Positions 142-27,499 of a stretch of DNA of 39,497 bases are shown here, in pieces (within the stretch, counting starts at the first letter, position 1; each line of letters begins with the position of its first letter). The notes beneath the pieces were generated by a model. It was not told the DNA's origin and made no database searches. It saw nothing but the letters and a program-made list of their open reading frames with translations. A program made the position numbers and the translations under genes. Source of the DNA: a virus; the UHGV virus genome UHGV-0087833. The stretch is one strand, 5' to 3'.

Positions 142-639
142 TCAGTGCCACGATTTTTGTTTCTTCAGTGAATCGTATTGCTGTTCGCAGGATTCTCCTG
201 CAATCCGATACTTTTCAGCCTCAGCTGCTGTTGCGTTGTAAACTCGGTTGCTTTCTTCAAGCATGTCGGCGAGCACACCGATGACCTTGCTGGCTGACGT
301 GCCAGTGGGGAAAGATCCGGTATAGTGTTCGGCGAGTCGCTTGGTTTTGTCAAGCTCGGCGCGCAGGCTGTCAGCAGCGGCATTAGCATGCTCAGCATCA
401 ACACGCGCCACATCGATACGGGATTGTGCTTCACGTTCAATTTGTGTTTTCTCCTGATCACGTTGTGACCTGGCCTTATCATCAGCCTGTTTCTGATCTT
501 CCTGTGCCTGTGCATACCCGGCGTCGTACTGACGACTACCGTGTGCATTCCAGGCTACAACTCCTGATATGACCAGAACAGCAAGCATCGCCATGATAAC
601 CAACTGTTTCCAGTATGCTTTTGCGAATGCCCAGATCAT
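142..639 (-). CDS. Rz-like i-spanin
   Basis: N-terminal TM segment then charged coiled-coil-like region; last gene of lysis cassette, overlaps endolysin end. Confidence 0.7.
165..398 (-). CDS. Rz1-like o-spanin lipoprotein embedded in Rz in another frame (start approximate)
   Basis: Frame inside Rz gene encodes [12 protein letters not shown] with lipobox LTAC followed by proline-rich sequence. Confidence 0.45.
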   Translation of the reverse strand: MLSMLMPLLTACAPSLTKPSDSPNTIPDLSPLARQPARSSVCSPTCLKKATEFTTQQQLRLKSIGLQENPANSNTIH

Positions 640-5769: not shown

Positions 5770-5855
5770 ATTTACATCGCACTCCTCTTGTGCCATAGTA
5801 ATCGGGCACTGGCAAAATCCAGTGCCGGGATTGGCGTCCCGGGTTACTACAGAGG

Positions 5856-5887
5856 CACATATGCCGCATAAGCGGTTTTTTTATGTG
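5856..5887 (+). terminator. Hairpin plus T7 run inside the ant leader (intrinsic terminator/attenuator candidate)
   Basis: CACATA...CCGC-ataa-GCGG-TTTTTTT-ATGTG; upstream hairpins at about 5803-5826 and 5827-5844. Confidence 0.45.
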
Positions 5888-6035
5888 TAAAGCGCACCTA
5901 TTCTATGGTGGGCTGTGTGGGGGCACCGAAAGGTGCGCCGGGTCCTTTGTAGCCGGTTACGCCAACCCTGCACAGTTCACCACCAACCGATTGGCGTCGG
6001 TAGTGGTGATTAACCTAACTACAAAGGTGATCACT

Positions 6036-6722
6036 ATGACTGCTAACGTAACCCCATCTGTTTTTCATTTTGAATCAGAAGCCACCATTCGAGCCATTGT
6101 TATTGATGGAAATCCTTGGTTTGTTGCCAAAGACGTTATTAAAGCTCTTCAACTGACAAACCCCACTATGTCAATAAAATCTCTTGATGATGATGAAAGG
6201 GCTAAATTTAACTTAGGCCGTCAAGGTGAAACCAATATTATCAACGAGTCAGGCCTCTACACACTGATCCTCCGCTGCCGCGACGCAGTGACACCAGGCA
6301 CTATCCCCTACCGCTTTCGTAAATGGGTTACAGGTGAGGTTCTTCCTCAGATCCGCCGCACCGGAAGTTACATTAAAAACTCGCTCCCGCAGGAAGAACG
6401 CATAAAGATAGTTGCCGACCAGGTAGCCAACGCCACAGCATCAGCAGTGATGCAGGCAATGAAGATAGAGAACAAAACCTACAGTGCCCCACTGAAGCCC
6501 GGCTACCGCAGCCTGATTCATTCTCCGTCTGGTGTTCTCGGCCTGACGGAGAACTCACTGCTGATGAATCTGCTGAACCAGTTACAGGAAGACGGGCACG
6601 ACGTATCGGGCGCGGCGGCGGAGCTGACCACCATGTTCTGCTACATTGTTGGTGTGAGCAAATGCCTGCGTGATATCCAGACCCACGCGGAGTACATCAA
6701 CGACAAGGCTGGGTTCTTCTGA
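6036..6722 (+). CDS. ant: Antirepressor Ant (Bro-N domain plus Ant C-terminal domain)
   Basis: Bro-N signature (GNPWFVAKDVIKAL...LDDDE...ESGLYTLIL...FRKWVTGEVLPQIRRTGSY); start at internal ATG 6036 with AAAGG RBS. Confidence 0.85.
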   Translation: MTANVTPSVFHFESEATIRAIVIDGNPWFVAKDVIKALQLTNPTMSIKSLDDDERAKFNLGRQGETNIINESGLYTLILRCRDAVTPGTIPYRFRKWVTGEVLPQIRRTGSYIKNSLPQEERIKIVADQVANATASAVMQAMKIENKTYSAPLKPGYRSLIHSPSGVLGLTENSLLMNLLNQLQEDGHDVSGAAAELTTMFCYIVGVSKCLRDIQTHAEYINDKAGFF

Positions 6723-6794
6723 CGGGCGGCGGCACAGGGATGTGCCTTTAAATAATTCTGTACAGATTGCAGACTGTGGGTGAATAGCGTACTA

Positions 6795-6809
6795 TTACCT
6801 TAAAGGTAA
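6795..6809. promoter_or_regulatory. Operator palindrome TTACC-ttaaa-GGTAA (site 3) overlapping a sigma70-like promoter
   Basis: TTGCAG (6768-6773), 16-bp spacer, TACTAT (6790-6795), then operator and AGGAGG RBS. Confidence 0.6.
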
Positions 6810-6821
6810 AGGAGGCGCGAT

Positions 6822-6989
6822 ATGACAGCGTTGAAAAATCGTACTCAGCACAATGAACAAGCCAAGCAATGCTGGGATGTCATTGGAAAAGTTATGCTTG
6901 GCCGCGCAAGCAAAGAGCGCGACAAGGATATGGTTTACCAGACAGGAACATCTTTCAGCGACTTCAAGGCGGCATTTCGCTCCAAATAG
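6822..6989 (+). CDS. Small hypothetical protein (55 aa), first gene of accessory cassette
   Basis: ATG 6822 eight nt after AGGAGG; in-frame TAG at 6987; below the ORF-track size cut-off. Confidence 0.5.
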   Translation: MTALKNRTQHNEQAKQCWDVIGKVMLGRASKERDKDMVYQTGTSFSDFKAAFRSK

Positions 6990-7009
6990 AAGCACATCAG
7001 GAGTTTTCC

Positions 7010-7450
7010 TTGAAGTTTAACATTAGAATATCTAATAGTTTTCTACATGGGGAAAGCAACACCCCTTTCGCTGTAGACGGACCTTTCCTTACTGATGATG
7101 AAATAAAAATCATACAAAGTTTTTTAGAGGATGTTGCCAATGGAAGGGCGCTTGTTGGAAAAAACAAGCCCTCGTGGGTTGATGATAACCATGATAAAAT
7201 TCCCGGCTCAGACAATTATGAGCAAGAGAATTATTGGCATTATCATTGTGGGCCAACATGGTATCCAAACACATTTAAGAATTATACCATTAACTTAAAT
7301 TTCAACCCTGGCGGAAGGCATTCTAATGAATGCATTCATTATGCAAAAAATGATAATGAAATTGTCATTGTTGGATTTTCAAGAGAACACATACCTTTCC
7401 TTTCATCAGATGGAAACAACAATCCGCTTTTTAATGATGAAGAAGAATAG
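7010..7450 (+). CDS. Hypothetical protein in low-GC island (146 aa, TTG start proposed)
   Basis: Only in-frame start not overlapping upstream ORF is TTG 7010 with AGGAG 6 nt upstream; region visibly AT-rich relative to the rest of the phage; followed by terminator. Confidence 0.5.
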   Translation: MKFNIRISNSFLHGESNTPFAVDGPFLTDDEIKIIQSFLEDVANGRALVGKNKPSWVDDNHDKIPGSDNYEQENYWHYHCGPTWYPNTFKNYTINLNFNPGGRHSNECIHYAKNDNEIVIVGFSREHIPFLSSDGNNNPLFNDEEE

Positions 7451-7471
7451 CCCGCGCTGCGGGCTTTTTTG
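7451..7471 (+). terminator. Rho-independent terminator
   Basis: CCCGC-gct-GCGGG followed by CTTTTTTG immediately after stop. Confidence 0.75.
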
Positions 7472-7542
7472 TGGGCGAAACAAAAGTCAGTGCTACACTC
7501 ATTGACGCCACATTGAGGTGGCTTATAGATGGAAATTTCACA

Positions 7543-7704
7543 ATGAAAAAAGCATTTGCTGCACTGTTCGTTTTGTTGTCTCTGGTAGCTTCAACTCAGG
7601 CCTTTGCCGGTCGTTGTCAGCACGACAGCGACACTGCTGCTGACGGCTCCCGCTGCGGTGGGCGTTCTGCGGATTCCCGCCCGGGTGGCGGTGGCATTCG
7701 TTAA
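7543..7704 (+). CDS. Small secreted peptide (53 aa precursor with signal peptide)
   Basis: MKKAFAALFVLLSLVASTQAFA-GR...: classic n/h/c signal peptide; mature part Gly-rich with 2 Cys. Confidence 0.45.
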   Translation: MKKAFAALFVLLSLVASTQAFAGRCQHDSDTAADGSRCGGRSADSRPGGGGIR

Positions 7705-7726
7705 AAACAAGGCCGCGAAAGCGGCC
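7703..7726 (-). terminator. Rho-independent terminator for the minus-strand lipoprotein transcript
   Basis: GGCCGC-gaaa-GCGGCC hairpin followed on the minus strand by TTGTTTTT. Confidence 0.55.
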
Positions 7727-7727
7727 T

Positions 7728-7739
7728 GTGACATGTCAC
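7728..7739. repeat. Perfect palindrome GTGACATGTCAC (copy 1 of 3)
   Basis: 12-bp perfect palindrome between lipoprotein stop and terminator hairpin. Confidence 0.8.
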
Positions 7740-7742
7740 GAC

Positions 7743-8156
7743 TTATAAAGATGACTGATATTTTACAACTCTGTTCATGGCATCTTTTTTCACCGAGCTG
7801 ATATCAGTTCTTATTTTGGCTTCGTCATTACTGCTTATCATGCTATTAATTTTTTGCACTGACATGCCGTTTCTTTCAGCCATTGCACATACAGCAGCAT
7901 CGTATGAAGAACTCGCTGCGATGGATATCACCTTGTTACACTCAAACACAGCACCTTCAGCAATATCAGATGCCGATGAGGCTGGCTTGGTATAAGTCTT
8001 GACGTAGTGATCAATACAACTATCCTTCGCCGTCTTGGCAAGAGAAAAATCCATTTTAACTTTGTCGCAATATGCCTTATCAACACCGTCATAAACATCA
8101 TAGGATGTCGAGCAAGCGGATATCAAAAATACCGATAACAGCAATAATTCCTTCAT
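7743..8156 (-). CDS. Lipoprotein (low-GC accessory gene)
   Basis: Signal peptide with lipobox LISAC; AAGGA RBS; AT-rich coding sequence. Confidence 0.7.
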   Translation of the reverse strand: MKELLLLSVFLISACSTSYDVYDGVDKAYCDKVKMDFSLAKTAKDSCIDHYVKTYTKPASSASDIAEGAVFECNKVISIAASSSYDAAVCAMAERNGMSVQKINSMISSNDEAKIRTDISSVKKDAMNRVVKYQSSL

Positions 8157-8165
8157 TGTTGTTCC

Positions 8166-10640
8166 TTATTGCGGAGTGACATCCTGAGGTCGCCACCAGT
8201 ATGTCTGGTTAAACTCTTTCTTCGAACGTTGCTCCATTTTACGCAAATAGCCTGGTGAAAAATACTCCTGCATCTGATTAAAGATCATGTGATCGAGAGC
8301 CGCCTTCAAGTACCAGAGATTCGCACCAGGCATCAAACCTTTCCCAAGCTTAACCAGATCACCACCAGTCTGCTCATTCTTCCCTTCCACAGCATTTAAC
8401 GGTATGCCCTGAGCAATCTTCACTACGTCATCAACCAGACCAGCTACCGGGCCAAGCATCGACGCTAGTGCGCCGCTCCCGTACCTGGTGTGGTCAGAGA
8501 AAAGAAAATCACCATACAACCCTGCCCCACCACCTTTTAAAAATGCATTTATCCAGAATTTAACCATGTTGTCACCGGTCATTTCTTTTGGATTTCTCCC
8601 ATTAATAAGATCAGTAATCTGCATGGAAAGAGCACCAAGCATGGTTGTGCTTGCTAAAAACGTTGCTATATATGCCGCACGCCCACCAGCAGACGGCATC
8701 CCCATAGCTCTATGCCAGTGACGCATAACTACCGAGATAGGGAACGATTTAAACAGGAAAACACTTCTCGTTAATTCACCTTTCCATGTTCCACGCTGAA
8801 GACCAGACCCTACGAACATCTGTTCACGTGCGCCCGGTGTAATAACAGCCATATCAACTTCTTCAGTTACGGCACCGAGCAGTTTACGCATTGCCTCAAA
8901 TTTCACGCGTTCAGGCTCACCAAGATGTTTAACTGCTGAATCAGGGATACGCATAATGCTTTCCGGTGTCAGCATCGTATTATTACCGTTCCCCCAGTCC
9001 TCCTGTTGCGCCAGCTTCCATACGCTCCAGTCTGTGTCAGTAATCCCTTTGCTTTTCAGGATACGAAAATCAGAGTCATCGAGGCTACGAAGGTCTGGTG
9101 TCCGTGACACTACTTCTCCCAGGCTTCCCATCATGGTTACGCCATAGGCGCGCTTGTGCGCATCTGACCATGCTGTAAGCCCACTGGCACGCATTACCGC
9201 CGTTGCCGCCCAACGAGACACAGACGGCCCCATATTATCCATCGCCCAGCGGTTAACGCTGCCAAGTAGAGATTCCATCGCCAGGCCAGCGCGGCGCGCC
9301 CGCGCAAGTTCTGTACGGTTCGTTGGGTCCATAGCTTCAAGCTGGTTGCGAAATAACTGGTTCATTGGAAGGTTGGTAACCTTCGCAGACAGATACATGG
9401 TTCCAAGATCAGAGAACGATGACAGCAACGCGGATCCGAGTCTGCTGGCAACCAGCCAGTTGCGGATATTGTCAGACCATCGCGCGATGTGCGGATTCGC
9501 TACAGGCTGTGTCTTTCCGGAAATAAAGTTGTACAGATTCTCTGTGTTGTTCGCCAGCCGCTCGACTTTACCGGTTTTACTCGGGTTAGCTGTTGCCGTT
9601 TCTGCCTTAACCTGATCAAGAAGGGAGCGGAAAACATGATCGGGGTTTGGACCATATGTTTCCACCAGAGCAATATCTTTACTGATACCTTCCAGGTGAC
9701 CGACCATGATTTCCCATAGAGAGCGATCGCCATAAAGTTGTTGATATTGGAGATAGGAATCTGCATCTTTGAAATGTATCTGTCGTGATGCATTACCACG
9801 GTTAGCACGTGCGCCGGAAATTCGCATTCCGGTATCAGTAAGCTTATTCAGCCCACCAGTAGCGATCGTGTTATAAGCCTCTCCAAGAAATGCAGACAAC
9901 TCGGCATCGTTCATCAGTTGTCCATCGGCTCGGGTATAATATTTGCGATCCAGCTTACCTATAACATCGCTAACCCATTTATCTTTTGATACCGCCCCAA
10001 CCTTTTCCATAGAATGATGTTGAGGGATCCCCCAGTTTTCGAGATAGCCAATGTCCCCACCAGCATCATTAAACCGGCGGCGCAGTAGATCTGTCACTTC
10101 TCTCCACGCCTTAGCACCTTTTCTTGCTTTAGCATTGCCAGTATTTTGCCCTCGCATTTCATATACCAGGTCACGCACGCCCGCTTCATCTTCAAACAGG
10201 CCAAAAAAGCGAGGATCAACTGCTTCAAATGCCTCCTGCAATTGACTCAATGCATAATCACGAGTGGCTTTTGTTCTGGATTCAACAGAGAGGAAATTCG
10301 ATTTACCGTCTGCATTAAAAGCAATAGTACGGTTAAGAGCGCCAAGTTTCCCATCAGCCCCTTGATAGCTATTGATAAATTTATCCAATCTCTGACGTGC
10401 GGCTATAGTGAGGGCCACACGACGTTTCTTTAATGCCGCTTCTCGCTGTAATTCTTCAGATGCCAATTGTGCTGCACGATACAACCGTTCTGATTCGGAA
10501 AGTTGTCGCCACGACATAGGGTCATCACGAGCAATGGAGCGCATATTTCGATAAATGCGGTCTTCAATGTTCTGTATTTCTCGCGCCGTTAACGTGCGCT
10601 GCGCCGCCTGCTGGACCGCTTGTATACATTCCTGTCTCAT
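8166..10640 (-). CDS. Internal virion / ejection protein (T7 gp16-like position)
   Basis: 824-aa ORF, last of the run of large proteins downstream of the tail tubular genes. Confidence 0.6.
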   Translation of the reverse strand: MRQECIQAVQQAAQRTLTAREIQNIEDRIYRNMRSIARDDPMSWRQLSESERLYRAAQLASEELQREAALKKRRVALTIAARQRLDKFINSYQGADGKLGALNRTIAFNADGKSNFLSVESRTKATRDYALSQLQEAFEAVDPRFFGLFEDEAGVRDLVYEMRGQNTGNAKARKGAKAWREVTDLLRRRFNDAGGDIGYLENWGIPQHHSMEKVGAVSKDKWVSDVIGKLDRKYYTRADGQLMNDAELSAFLGEAYNTIATGGLNKLTDTGMRISGARANRGNASRQIHFKDADSYLQYQQLYGDRSLWEIMVGHLEGISKDIALVETYGPNPDHVFRSLLDQVKAETATANPSKTGKVERLANNTENLYNFISGKTQPVANPHIARWSDNIRNWLVASRLGSALLSSFSDLGTMYLSAKVTNLPMNQLFRNQLEAMDPTNRTELARARRAGLAMESLLGSVNRWAMDNMGPSVSRWAATAVMRASGLTAWSDAHKRAYGVTMMGSLGEVVSRTPDLRSLDDSDFRILKSKGITDTDWSVWKLAQQEDWGNGNNTMLTPESIMRIPDSAVKHLGEPERVKFEAMRKLLGAVTEEVDMAVITPGAREQMFVGSGLQRGTWKGELTRSVFLFKSFPISVVMRHWHRAMGMPSAGGRAAYIATFLASTTMLGALSMQITDLINGRNPKEMTGDNMVKFWINAFLKGGGAGLYGDFLFSDHTRYGSGALASMLGPVAGLVDDVVKIAQGIPLNAVEGKNEQTGGDLVKLGKGLMPGANLWYLKAALDHMIFNQMQEYFSPGYLRKMEQRSKKEFNQTYWWRPQDVTPQ

Positions 10641-10645
10641 TTAAT

Positions 10646-12448
10646 TTAACCTCTCAAGAAACACGCCACAGCGACATCAAACAGGCTGGAATCCTGTATT
10701 GCCTGCTCACTTTCCCTGTTCGCTTCATCCAGCACTTCACGCGCGCTGCGCGATTGTGGATTACCATCATCATCCAGCACGGTGATTATCATGTCAGGTG
10801 ATTCAAGCAGCGAGTCTTCAGCTATGCGCAGATCAATATCTCCTGCCTGATCCGCCATCATTTTTTGTTCTGCATGTTGCAATATTTTATCAGACTCAAA
10901 AGGAGCTACTTCGTCTGGCGTCCTGACCTCTGCTGTTTTATAGAATGAAACAGCCTGAGCATTAAGTTCACTTTCTGCCTGCTGTCTCCGAGCCAGTTCT
11001 GCTCGAGCTTCAAAAAACTGACCGCCAGGCTCATGCGGTGCCAACGCGTTACGGGAAAATTCCAGGCGTTCTTGTGCCTGCCGGATTCGTTGTTCAATAT
11101 CGCGAATTCTGGCCTGTTTATCTGATCGAGCACGAGACAAAGCTTTACCGCTACCAGTTGGCTCTTCTGCAAGAATTTGTGCACGCTGTTCAGTGAGATT
11201 TTCAATAATTCGTTGGCTATTAGCGATTTCAGACTGGTAAACCTGTCTATCTCCACGCGGCAAAAGCTGCGCGGCCTGTTCTTCAAGCAACCGATTTTCT
11301 ATAGCGCGCGCCGTTACTCCATCATCTACAGATGACAGAGCCTCATTAACTGCCTGAGACAGCAGACTCTTGCGCCCAGGAATTTCACTGAAAGATGCAG
11401 ACTCAACAATGCTGGCAACGTCTACAGGTCTCCCCTGGCTAACATCAGACATAGCTTTTCGCAGAGCCTGAATGTGAGAATTGCGCGAAAGCACGTTGAT
11501 CGGCACGCCGGGCGCAATATCAATTTCAGCATGATGAGCGGCATTCGCCGCCAGTGCAGCATCAACATCAACTGGTGAAAAATTTGGTGCGCTTGTAGAC
11601 TCGCCGCGAGAGTTAATAAATCTGCCGACTCCACCAAAAGCCACCCCAAGAACAGCATCAATAGCAATTGCCTGTCGATCCAACACATCATACTGGTTAG
11701 CCATTTCGCTATAGCCACCATCACGAAGCGTTTTTGCAGTAAGCCCGCGCTGTGCCATACCGAACGCAATATTTGTACCTGCGGCATAGGCAATATCTGG
11801 CGTTGCACGTACTGCTGTTGCCGCGGCGCGTCGCACTGAACTTTCACCCGTCCGCGCAAGCTGAGCCGCCACACCTTCCGCCAGCGCACCACCAGCACGT
11901 AACCCGAGACTCATAGGGATCAGTGTTCCGGCACCAGCAGTAATACCCTGCACTAATCCCGCTTCCTGCGCCGTCCTGAAATCAACCCCCTGCGCTGTCA
12001 GTCGTTCAAACTCAGAAAAACCCTGTAGCGAAGTTACCGCCGCAGCACCTCCGACCGGACCACCGAGCGTTGTACCGACAACAGCCTGCCCGCCCATATC
12101 GAACAACCCATAAAGAACCTGCCCTGCGGTTCCGGTTGTCGCGGCATCAGGCGTCAGCCGCTTAACCTGCTGCTCTGCTAGTTTTCTCTGCTCGGCAATG
12201 TATGAAACTGAAGTGTCATTGAGCGAGGTGTTTTCGTTAACAAACTGAGCAATCGGGGATACGATTTTATCCATCCCTGCCCATAGCAACTGATCTGGCT
12301 TTGCCACCAGCCCGGAGTACAAACCAGACAATGCCGCTCCTACAGCATTGTCGAAAAAACCAACATCGCTGTTAAAGCCAACTGGATTTGATGCTGCTTC
12401 GTCAAGCTGCTGATTCTGGTTTACTGGATTAAGGCCAAAGTAACTCAT
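10646..12448 (-). CDS. Internal virion / ejection protein
   Basis: 600-aa Ala/Gly-rich ORF within the internal-core gene block. Confidence 0.6.
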   Translation of the reverse strand: MSYFGLNPVNQNQQLDEAASNPVGFNSDVGFFDNAVGAALSGLYSGLVAKPDQLLWAGMDKIVSPIAQFVNENTSLNDTSVSYIAEQRKLAEQQVKRLTPDAATTGTAGQVLYGLFDMGGQAVVGTTLGGPVGGAAAVTSLQGFSEFERLTAQGVDFRTAQEAGLVQGITAGAGTLIPMSLGLRAGGALAEGVAAQLARTGESSVRRAAATAVRATPDIAYAAGTNIAFGMAQRGLTAKTLRDGGYSEMANQYDVLDRQAIAIDAVLGVAFGGVGRFINSRGESTSAPNFSPVDVDAALAANAAHHAEIDIAPGVPINVLSRNSHIQALRKAMSDVSQGRPVDVASIVESASFSEIPGRKSLLSQAVNEALSSVDDGVTARAIENRLLEEQAAQLLPRGDRQVYQSEIANSQRIIENLTEQRAQILAEEPTGSGKALSRARSDKQARIRDIEQRIRQAQERLEFSRNALAPHEPGGQFFEARAELARRQQAESELNAQAVSFYKTAEVRTPDEVAPFESDKILQHAEQKMMADQAGDIDLRIAEDSLLESPDMIITVLDDDGNPQSRSAREVLDEANRESEQAIQDSSLFDVAVACFLRG

Positions 12449-21954: not shown

Positions 21955-22247
21955 TCCTGTTCACTGGCCTCTTTGGCCATCTTCAAATACTGTTCAGGGC
22001 AATGCGCCATAACGCGCTGAAACAGTTCCAGCGCCAGATTGCGTTGCCCCTCATTAAATGCCATTGCCATAGCGTCCATCGGTGAGATAGCGGAAAACAC
22101 ACGGCCTTTCTCCAGCACCGACCAGACAACGCGACGCCCCTGTTCACTGCTCATGACAAAGCGAATGTCATCAATTTCACGCTGTGCCATGTCACGTTGC
22201 TTACGGGCGTTTTCTTCTTTCAGTTGATCATCTTCGTAATCTGTCAT
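21951..22247 (-). CDS. Hypothetical head morphogenesis protein
   Basis: 98 aa, overlaps portal stop and scaffold start. Confidence 0.4.
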   Translation of the reverse strand: MTDYEDDQLKEENARKQRDMAQREIDDIRFVMSSEQGRRVVWSVLEKGRVFSAISPMDAMAMAFNEGQRNLALELFQRVMAHCPEQYLKMAKEASEQE

Positions 22248-25222: not shown

Positions 25223-25234
25223 GTGACATGTCAC
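25223..25234. repeat. Perfect palindrome GTGACATGTCAC (copy 2 of 3)
   Basis: Sits 4 bp after the Gp49-like stop and 4 bp before terminator hairpin. Confidence 0.8.
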
Positions 25235-27487: not shown

Positions 27488-27499
27488 GTGACATGTCAC
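27488..27499. repeat. Perfect palindrome GTGACATGTCAC (copy 3 of 3)
   Basis: Overlaps stop codon of the 113-aa gene, about 40 bp before the terminator. Confidence 0.8.

Follow-up and report, generated by a model that had tools for sequence, protein, structure and literature searches.

The stretch of DNA analyzed here, which we call the window, is the 39,497-nucleotide virus genome UHGV-0087833, a phiV10/epsilon15-like (Uetakevirus) prophage of Escherichia coli. Our subject is two small genes within it that converge tail to tail, namely a plus-strand gene for a secreted peptide of 53 amino acids (aa) and a minus-strand gene for a 137-aa lipoprotein. On the minus strand, the gene for a T7_gp14-family protein is followed by genes for proteins of 862, 600, and 824 aa, then by the lipoprotein open reading frame (ORF) and a terminator. 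The plus strand carries an island made up of a Bro-N antirepressor gene, a 55-aa ORF, a 146-aa ORF, and the peptide gene, after which come the tailspike and lysis genes. The region holding both genes of interest is 100% identical to a prophage of E. coli ECCNB12-2 that adjoins pdeF/yfgGHI. Phages phiv142-3 and HEMP4 match region 6800-8400 at 99% identity over 74% of its length, and similarity of phiV10 to this region is confined to its two ends. As described below, comparison with related proviruses points to the lipoprotein gene being the payload of a dedicated cargo slot directly 3' of the last putative ejection/core gene of Uetakevirus-like prophages.

The lipoprotein was recognized in a first-pass annotation made from the sequence alone, and the ORF bears out that description, with a lysine at residue 2, a hydrophobic core (LLLLSVFLI), and the lipobox ISAC at residues 12-15. 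The signal peptide is the sole hydrophobic segment of the protein. The annotation had counted five further cysteines; there are five in total (residues 15, 30, 47, 73, and 90) and hence four beyond the lipobox Cys15. Its label of AT-rich holds moderately, the GC content of the gene being 39.4%, that of the window 48.9%, and that of the 824-aa gene 48.6%. The ATG of the lipoprotein gene lies 9 nt past the stop codon of the 824-aa gene, and its Shine-Dalgarno sequence, AAGGA, overlaps that stop, so that the gene is indeed appended to the operon as had been claimed, with the ejection identity of that operon being putative. We read the large proteins as probable ejection/core proteins because of the T7_gp14 family match in the operon (E 2.5e-7) and synteny, in line with the phiV10 annotation and phrog_684. 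In E. coli, a lipoprotein is sorted to the outer membrane when the residue at position +2 is not Asp, and the serine found here thus predicts an outer-membrane location. The features of the locus are collected in Table 1.

Table 1. Features at and around the convergent genes; positions are those of the window.
Feature	Position	Strand	Description
Rz1-like o-spanin ORF	~165-400	-	LLTAC lipobox, proline-rich tail; out of frame inside DUF2514 gene (142-639)
55-aa ORF	6822-6989	+	phrog_8607; between antirepressor and peptide gene
146-aa ORF	7010-7450	+	phrog_5954; GC about 37-39%; between antirepressor and peptide gene
Intrinsic terminator	7449-7471	+	ends upstream antirepressor/55-aa/146-aa unit
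Probable extended -10, TGcTACACT	7491-7499	+	TAnnnT (7494-7499) invariant in 12/12 Enterobacterales loci
5' leader hairpin, GCCAC-N6-GTGGC	7507-7522	+	five bp; compensatory changes in 3/5 pairs, 11 loci
Peptide gene, 53 aa	7543-7704	+	signal peptide 7543-7608, mature part 7609-7701; phrog_14503
Hairpin terminator	7700-7727 (stem-loop 7710-7727)	-	minus-strand T-run; closes late operon after lipoprotein
Palindrome GTGACATGTCAC	7728-7739		perfect, 12 nt; right-hand boundary of every cassette type
Exchangeable cassette	7741-8161	-	only differing stretch in blastn of window against L025, L046, and L059
Lipoprotein gene, 137 aa	7743-8156	-	signal peptide residues 1-14, lipobox ISAC, Cys15, Ser at +2; phrog_8691
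Last gene of putative ejection/internal-core operon, 824 aa	8166-10640	-	phiV10 gp20 homologue ('virion structural protein'); phrog_684

The position directly after the 824-aa gene was surveyed in 80 IMG/VR proviruses encoding close relatives of the C-terminal part of the 824-aa protein. Enough downstream sequence was available at 78 loci, 77 of which were fully classified and form the basis of the type counts. In all 78, the next gene begins 8-9 nt past the stop codon of the 824-aa homologue, and what follows that junction falls into four types. Type A is the 137-aa lipoprotein (19/77 loci), type B a 57-aa protein with two transmembrane (TM) segments together with a 98-aa multi-TM protein of phrog_3075 (34/77), type C the 46-aa two-TM protein of phiV10 (gp21, phrog_7892; 18/77), and type D a 41-aa TM protein together with an unrelated 126-aa lipoprotein having the lipobox LLVGC (phrog_3716; 6/77). 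The four cassettes are mutually unrelated, and every one encodes membrane protein(s) and/or a lipoprotein. Between loci with different cassettes, homology stops at 8162-8166 (the stop codon plus GGA) and restarts at 7740; the lipoprotein cassette is therefore essentially just the ORF.

At its other edge, every cassette type adjoins the palindrome GTGACATGTCAC, as seen across 86 related loci. Besides the copy at this locus, the window contains exact copies at 25223-25234 and 27488-27499 and a one-mismatch copy at 22184-22195, against a chance expectation of 0.06 for matches that are exact or have one mismatch. The palindrome might act as an operator or an RNA element, or it might mark a recombination boundary. 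The edges of the slot are the stop codon of the putative ejection gene with the Shine-Dalgarno sequence on one side and the palindrome with the terminator on the other, and unrelated cassettes, each encoding one or more cell-envelope proteins, are exchanged between them. As separate observations, all three exact copies of the palindrome are intergenic and at gene ends, two of the three abut hairpin terminators, and the copy at 25223 again sits at a convergent junction, 3' of a 123-aa gene that is inserted into the late region on the plus strand. The stop codon of the type D lipoprotein (L059 5255-5635, also in L072, L078, L087, L096, and L097), which belongs to no Pfam family, falls within the palindrome.

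The arrangement extends beyond close relatives. Even next to ejection proteins with an identity of only 24-27%, the slot is again filled by exported or membrane proteins. The Cedecea slot holds a lipoprotein that is 55% identical to that of the window, compared with 24% for the neighboring ejection protein; since the lipoprotein is so much better conserved than its neighbor, the cassette evidently travels from one diverged phage to another without losing its place. The slot of a metagenomic phage holds a 191-aa secreted protein and a member of the lipoprotein family (P0080), and that of Buttiauxella a 91-aa two-TM protein. A Klebsiella pneumoniae prophage (L101) has in its slot a Rap1a-family protein (6711-7094) scoring 48.2 bits against a cutoff of 27.7; the protein has a signal peptide, and its gene begins 2 nt past the last ejection gene and is followed by that of a non-lipidated member of the lipoprotein family. 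A tblastn search with the Klebsiella Rap1a-like protein against phage isolates found only Cronobacter phage ENT47670, and that weakly.

The lipoprotein matches phrog_8691, a family with no function assigned, from end to end (E 1.6e-91), and it fits the pattern of that family, whose members are 134-142 aa long, exported, and encoded after the last ejection gene. It is a real gene of a very small family. Only 17 clusters of it, from E. coli, Enterobacter, Citrobacter, and Cedecea, are present in a collection of 5.8 billion proteins, seven matches came from a profile search of 1.8 billion representative proteins, and pN/pS within the family is 0.07-0.35. Distant homologues at 26-44% identity all keep the lipobox and the four further cysteines, which are invariant and have a conserved spacing (x16 and x16 within two helices). 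The Klebsiella member has an ordinary signal peptide without a lipobox and was placed in the family by hhalign (97.4%, E 1e-11) and by a match to phrog_8691 (E 2.9e-5). Low GC content is also a family trait, with members at 28-41% in surroundings of 40-52%, each 8-21 points below its own locus. No match to the lipoprotein was found in Pfam, NCBIfam, or PADLOC.

The structure of the lipoprotein as predicted with AlphaFold (AF2) is all-alpha with a confidence (pLDDT) of 85.5. In this model Cys30 and Cys47 lie in a helix spanning residues 24-55, and Cys73 and Cys90 lie at or in an antiparallel helix spanning residues 74-96. Two disulfides, probably 30-90 and 47-73, would staple these helices together, a pairing that we propose because both pairs sum to 120 (30+90 and 47+73) along the antiparallel helices. 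Structure searches with the model returned no structural match, and profile searches against the sequences of the PDB returned nothing for either the lipoprotein or the peptide.

A small, helical, disulfide-bonded architecture in the periplasm or anchored to the outer membrane is typical of immunity proteins against envelope toxins, and the known Rap1a/Tai4-type immunity proteins are disulfide-bonded. The lipoprotein, as modeled, resembles these proteins in being small, exported, and helical, and a Rap1a-family gene, i.e., one of an immunity family directed against amidases of the type VI secretion system (T6SS), shares the Klebsiella slot with a member of the lipoprotein family. The lipoprotein might accordingly be viewed as an orphan periplasmic immunity protein that serves the fitness of the lysogen against toxins that competitors direct at the envelope, for instance T6SS peptidoglycan hydrolases or enzymes resembling colicins and pesticin, and its low GC content and patchy distribution would suit such cargo. 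In contrast, hhalign gives a probability of only 0.08% for its relationship to the Rap1a-like neighbor in Klebsiella, it differs from Rap1a (PF18602) in showing no Pfam match, profile similarity, or structural match, no other Pfam immunity family or solved immunity protein was matched, and no effector gene lies nearby. Furthermore, lacking a promoter of its own, the lipoprotein would be absent from the lysogen, the very state that requires an immunity protein. We regard an immunity function as unlikely.

One distant homologue, P0077, is found outside phages, in integrase/AlpA/DUF3987 islands beside Druantia-like, Gabija-like, and restriction-modification genes. In these islands (L015-L017), its gene (8001-8420) stands alone between the island core genes (integrase/AlpA/DUF3987/YfjJ) and the defense cargo, which comprises a 2140-aa DEAD/helicase/MZB protein, OLD-TOPRIM with UvrD, type I and other restriction-modification genes, and SIR2.

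Among 5426 complete E. coli genomes, the lipoprotein is present in 22, and its carriers include animal and human isolates. A prophage-borne, low-GC lipoprotein of the outer-membrane type in such isolates could be cargo for host interaction or virulence in the manner of lambda Bor, changing how the lysogen resists serum, adheres, or tolerates envelope stress. The protein resembles neither Bor/Iss nor any other Pfam family, though, and its gene has no promoter of its own; nor would the strict tie to the ejection operon across deep divergence be expected of a host-interaction gene. This makes a Bor-like role improbable in our estimation, somewhat more so than an immunity function.

The expression of the lipoprotein was considered from its sequence context. 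A scan of the minus strand over 8100-10700 for sigma-70-like sites found none upstream of the lipoprotein gene, the one nearby match being inside the ORF. Because of this lack of its own promoter and the 9-nt junction, the lipoprotein gene is probably the last cistron of the late operon. That coupling is shared by all cassettes, which follow the operon at 8-9 nt without a promoter of their own, and all cassette products are membrane or periplasmic proteins, as are the lysis regulators of phages, the small periplasmic protein RI of T4 among them. The slot proteins might thus serve the late program of the phage itself, by setting the timing of lysis, modulating antiholin or spanins, or preparing the envelope for release. 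What argues against this is that the phage has a complete lysis cassette at another place, consisting of two holins, an endolysin, a DUF2514 i-spanin, and an embedded Rz1-like o-spanin with the lipobox LLTAC. The cassettes are also mutually unrelated and dispensable, one relative (Pantoea, L110) having none, and the homologue P0077 occurs outside phages in defense islands. Taking both sides together, we consider a role in the late program doubtful, at about the same level as immunity.

A narrower possibility, that the lipoprotein is itself an o-spanin of the Rz1 type, was rejected. An Rz1-like ORF already exists within the DUF2514 gene, and the 137-aa protein is predicted to be helical, is encoded 7 kb from the lysis genes, and is absent from most relatives. 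The Rz1-like ORF is unannotated in the RefSeq record of the identical prophage.

The peptide gene presents a different picture. The precursor consists of the signal peptide MKKAFAALFVLLSLVASTQAFA and the mature part GRCQHDSDTAADGSRCGGRSADSRPGGGGIR, with a basic n-region, a hydrophobic core, and a cleavage motif between AFA and G. The mature peptide has 31 residues, including eight glycines and two cysteines that delimit a Cys25-Cys38 loop, and contains the invariant core DGSRCG.R...RPGG. All of this agrees with the earlier description of a 53-aa precursor with a signal peptide and a Gly-rich mature part of about 31 residues with two cysteines. The peptide matches phrog_14503 (E 2.3e-40), carries the NCBI name 'transmembrane anchored protein', and conforms to a family pattern of a precursor of about 48-55 aa with a signal peptide and the C-terminal pattern C-x4-D-x-A-x-DGS-x-CG-x-R-x4-R-P-GG, the core of which was matched by all 58 peptide loci. 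Among the Enterobacterales, the signal peptide varies and the mature core CQHDSDTAADGSRCGGRSADSRPGG is almost fixed.

This family reaches far beyond phages. A profile search found at least 673 clusters in many phyla, including Proteobacteria and Cyanobacteria, and a genome-wide scan found the core in the genomes of 57 species, among them Rhizobiales, Methylobacterium, Devosia, Vibrio, Bacteriovorax, and cyanobacteria, with a precursor of nearly always about 48-55 aa and, in some cyanobacterial copies, a lipobox. The peptide is present in 445 of the 5426 complete E. coli genomes (8%), making it 20 times commoner than the lipoprotein, and it occurs in other prophage types as well. Over 15 Enterobacterales loci and one from Tolumonas, the core has a pS of 0.71 and a pN of 0.105 (pN/pS 0.15), all 25 of its third codon positions vary, its synonymous sites are saturated, and the codons behind identical peptides differ widely. 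The protein sequence of the peptide is clearly under strong purifying selection. A Pfam scan of 21 diverse family members with E up to 10 returned scattered noise only, no conserved neighbor gene of the family was found, Rfam has no RNA family in the peptide region, and a search for papers containing the peptide motif, or the NCBI name together with 'prophage', found none.

The peptide gene looks like an autonomous transcription unit because of the terminator upstream of it and its conserved leader elements (Table 1). The leader was compared over loci L102-L115; apart from the probable extended -10 and the hairpin, a CTAYACA motif 5' of the Shine-Dalgarno sequence is common to 12 Enterobacterales loci of differing genomic context. 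The conserved leader (7491-7542) has no entry in Rfam. A consensus scan found no two-hexamer promoter at the peptide gene, and the TTGACG (7502)/TATAGA promoter implied by the first-pass annotation fails the scan's rule of a T at -7 and is not conserved. Morons, as known from HK97 and lambda, are extra genes of temperate phages that bring their own promoter and terminator. The peptide gene is a candidate moron, being optional (present in 39/77 loci), having an upstream terminator, a TG-n-TAnnnT element, and a downstream hairpin, and being mobile between phage types, but its GC content of 57% is above that of the phage, not below it. The lipoprotein gene, for its part, resembles morons in its patchy distribution and deviant GC content and differs from them in having no promoter and being joined to the late operon at the fixed 9-nt junction.

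The peptide gene and the lipoprotein gene end 38 nt apart and converge on one hairpin. Its stem-loop lies 6 nt past the peptide stop and has no T-run on the plus strand, and transcripts of the peptide gene could therefore run antisense into the lipoprotein gene. Such an arrangement would be in keeping with a functional pair, either as peptide ligand and lipoprotein partner or through mutual antisense action across the shared terminator, and the convergent genes had been put forward as a unit at the outset. The distribution of the genes argues otherwise. The peptide is present with 11 of the 19 lipoprotein loci and with 28 of the 58 others, i.e., at chance level (Fisher p=0.60; 77 proviruses), the lipoprotein occurs without the peptide in Citrobacter, Enterobacter, and Cedecea loci, and the peptide accompanies every cassette type and is also present in phages of other types and in non-phage genomes. 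That the two genes adjoin is coincidental, and they are independent accessory genes; a functional pair is very improbable.

Several known systems offer a comparison for the lipoprotein. In phage P22, sieA lies between gene 16 and the mnt-arc-ant-gene 9 region, and the lipoprotein gene likewise is an optional envelope gene between the last ejection gene and the antirepressor and tailspike genes. SieA blocks injection via the C-terminal parts of ejection proteins, is optional among P22-like phages, and has the family motif FxRYPxEAxxFNK (PMC10883804). In contrast to SieA, which is a multi-pass inner-membrane protein, the lipoprotein is of the outer-membrane type and lacks this motif, and a blastp comparison of the two gave no significant similarity, the best match covering 20 residues (E 0.11). 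The two genes also differ in that sieA has its own promoter and is convergent to gene 16, whereas the lipoprotein gene is co-oriented with its operon and has no promoter.

A second group for comparison is that of the small phage lipoproteins T5 Llp, phi80/N15 Cor, and mEpimmI Lpp, which are similarly encoded in or beside virion genes and exist in alternative types. Such lipoproteins have been shown to keep out phages dependent on a particular outer-membrane receptor, with FhuA as the receptor concerned for T5 Llp. In the mEpimmI coliphages, alternative types of Lpp within the structural cluster exclude their own phages (PMC11893012). None of the three shows a detectable sequence relation to the lipoprotein of the window. 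Llp and Cor are smaller than its mature form of 123 residues. Uetakeviruses are not known to use a receptor other than O-antigen.

Taken together, the reading that we prefer, at a probability of roughly 0.4, is that the lipoprotein excludes phage, or protects against it, at the level of the envelope and acts during lytic growth, either as a late block to superinfection or by sparing progeny from adsorption to debris. This is a best-supported guess that leans on the envelope-only content of the slot, the neighborhood shared with sieA, the mEpimmI lipoproteins, and the defense context of P0077, and action during lytic growth is favored because of the late-operon coupling. The lipoprotein would be expressed from the final cistron of the late operon, exported by Sec, lipidated at Cys15, and sorted to the outer membrane, on whose inner face it would fold as a helical bundle with two disulfides stapling helix 1 to helix 3. 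Acting from the periplasm, it may then disturb either the outer-membrane receptor step of an incoming phage or the channel formed by its ejection proteins. The outcome would be that the producing cell is protected late in infection or, as with T5 Llp, that progeny are not wasted on debris.

The peptide would have no part in this function. Under our proposal, it is a self-contained add-on that comprises a -10 element, a 5' hairpin, an ORF, and a terminator, and it meets the lipoprotein gene, the other of two independent accessory genes, tail to tail at a hairpin that would serve both directions. Its product, which belongs to an ancient and widespread family, would be a peptide of about 31 aa that resides in the periplasm, has a disulfide loop, and probably binds a conserved envelope component common to double-membraned bacteria, and phages would carry it as cargo. 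Because the family is spread through non-phage contexts, phage exclusion cannot be its general role. The superinfection exclusion that the first-pass annotation had suggested for both genes is thus plausible for the lipoprotein, given the slot content and the analogies to P22 sieA and mEpimmI, and unlikely for the peptide, given the spread of its family through non-phage contexts.

A number of results weigh against this reading. The lipoprotein has no homology to any known exclusion protein, and a tblastn search of 50,697 phage isolate genomes found none encoding it; a search of phage isolates with the Klebsiella family member likewise found none. Expression from the prophage, which classical exclusion needs, is unsupported by the sequence, as the gene has no promoter. 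All type A loci carry a C-terminal allele of the ejection protein that is 98-100% identical, and four loci with such an allele hold other cassettes; the association of cassette and allele can be explained by physical linkage alone. No SLT domain was detected in the 862-aa protein of this phage, though one is present in Cedecea and Klebsiella relatives, which removes one obvious periplasmic target. As for the peptide, AF2 gave a confident helix for the signal peptide only, with the mature part at a pLDDT of 50-63 and no defined fold.

Two further ideas concern the same proteins. That the lipoprotein inhibits an SLT domain of its own phage was tried as a candidate and is weakened by the 862-aa protein having no detectable SLT domain. 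A bolder version of the preferred reading would make the slot a palindrome-bounded exchange site for ejection-channel factors, the lipoprotein the first outer-membrane-anchored, late-made blocker or guide of a T7-gp14-type channel, and the peptide a captured envelope ligand; in this full form, we hold it to be unlikely.

The plus-strand island also holds other genes and RNAs. The 55-aa and 146-aa ORFs between the antirepressor and the peptide gene are two more cargo genes, and other strains have a YafO-family toxin or a DUF4760 protein annotated where they sit. Directly 5' of the Bro-N antirepressor gene, Rfam places in 5793-5987 (+) a C4 antisense RNA (79.5 bits), IsrK (74.7 bits), and a c4 a1/b1 target element scoring slightly under the Rfam gathering threshold. 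The arrangement suggests that a podovirus prophage controls its antirepressor through an immI system of the P1/P7 type. The longest ORF of the antirepressor (start 5883) overlaps these elements, and the RefSeq start corresponds to window position 6036.

Accessory envelope genes at this position are of an already known kind. What is new is the precise, palindrome-bounded slot with exclusively envelope cargo, the tiny four-cysteine lipoprotein family tied to that slot, and the breadth of an unstudied peptide family, whose core, some 25 residues long, hardly varies between E. coli prophages, rhizobia, and cyanobacteria and for which we found no Pfam family or structure. Since the slot can be read from sequence alone, by the ejection stop codon on one side and GTGACATGTCAC plus terminator on the other, it could yield a harvest of further prophage candidates, and it offers a natural set of cassette swaps between otherwise isogenic phages. 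If slot proteins do act on incoming phage, several unrelated small families, namely two lipoproteins and three tiny membrane proteins unseen by PADLOC and Pfam, would join the envelope-level exclusion factors. The coupling of these genes to the late operon would moreover point to exclusion set up in lytic growth, which is less studied than exclusion in lysogeny.

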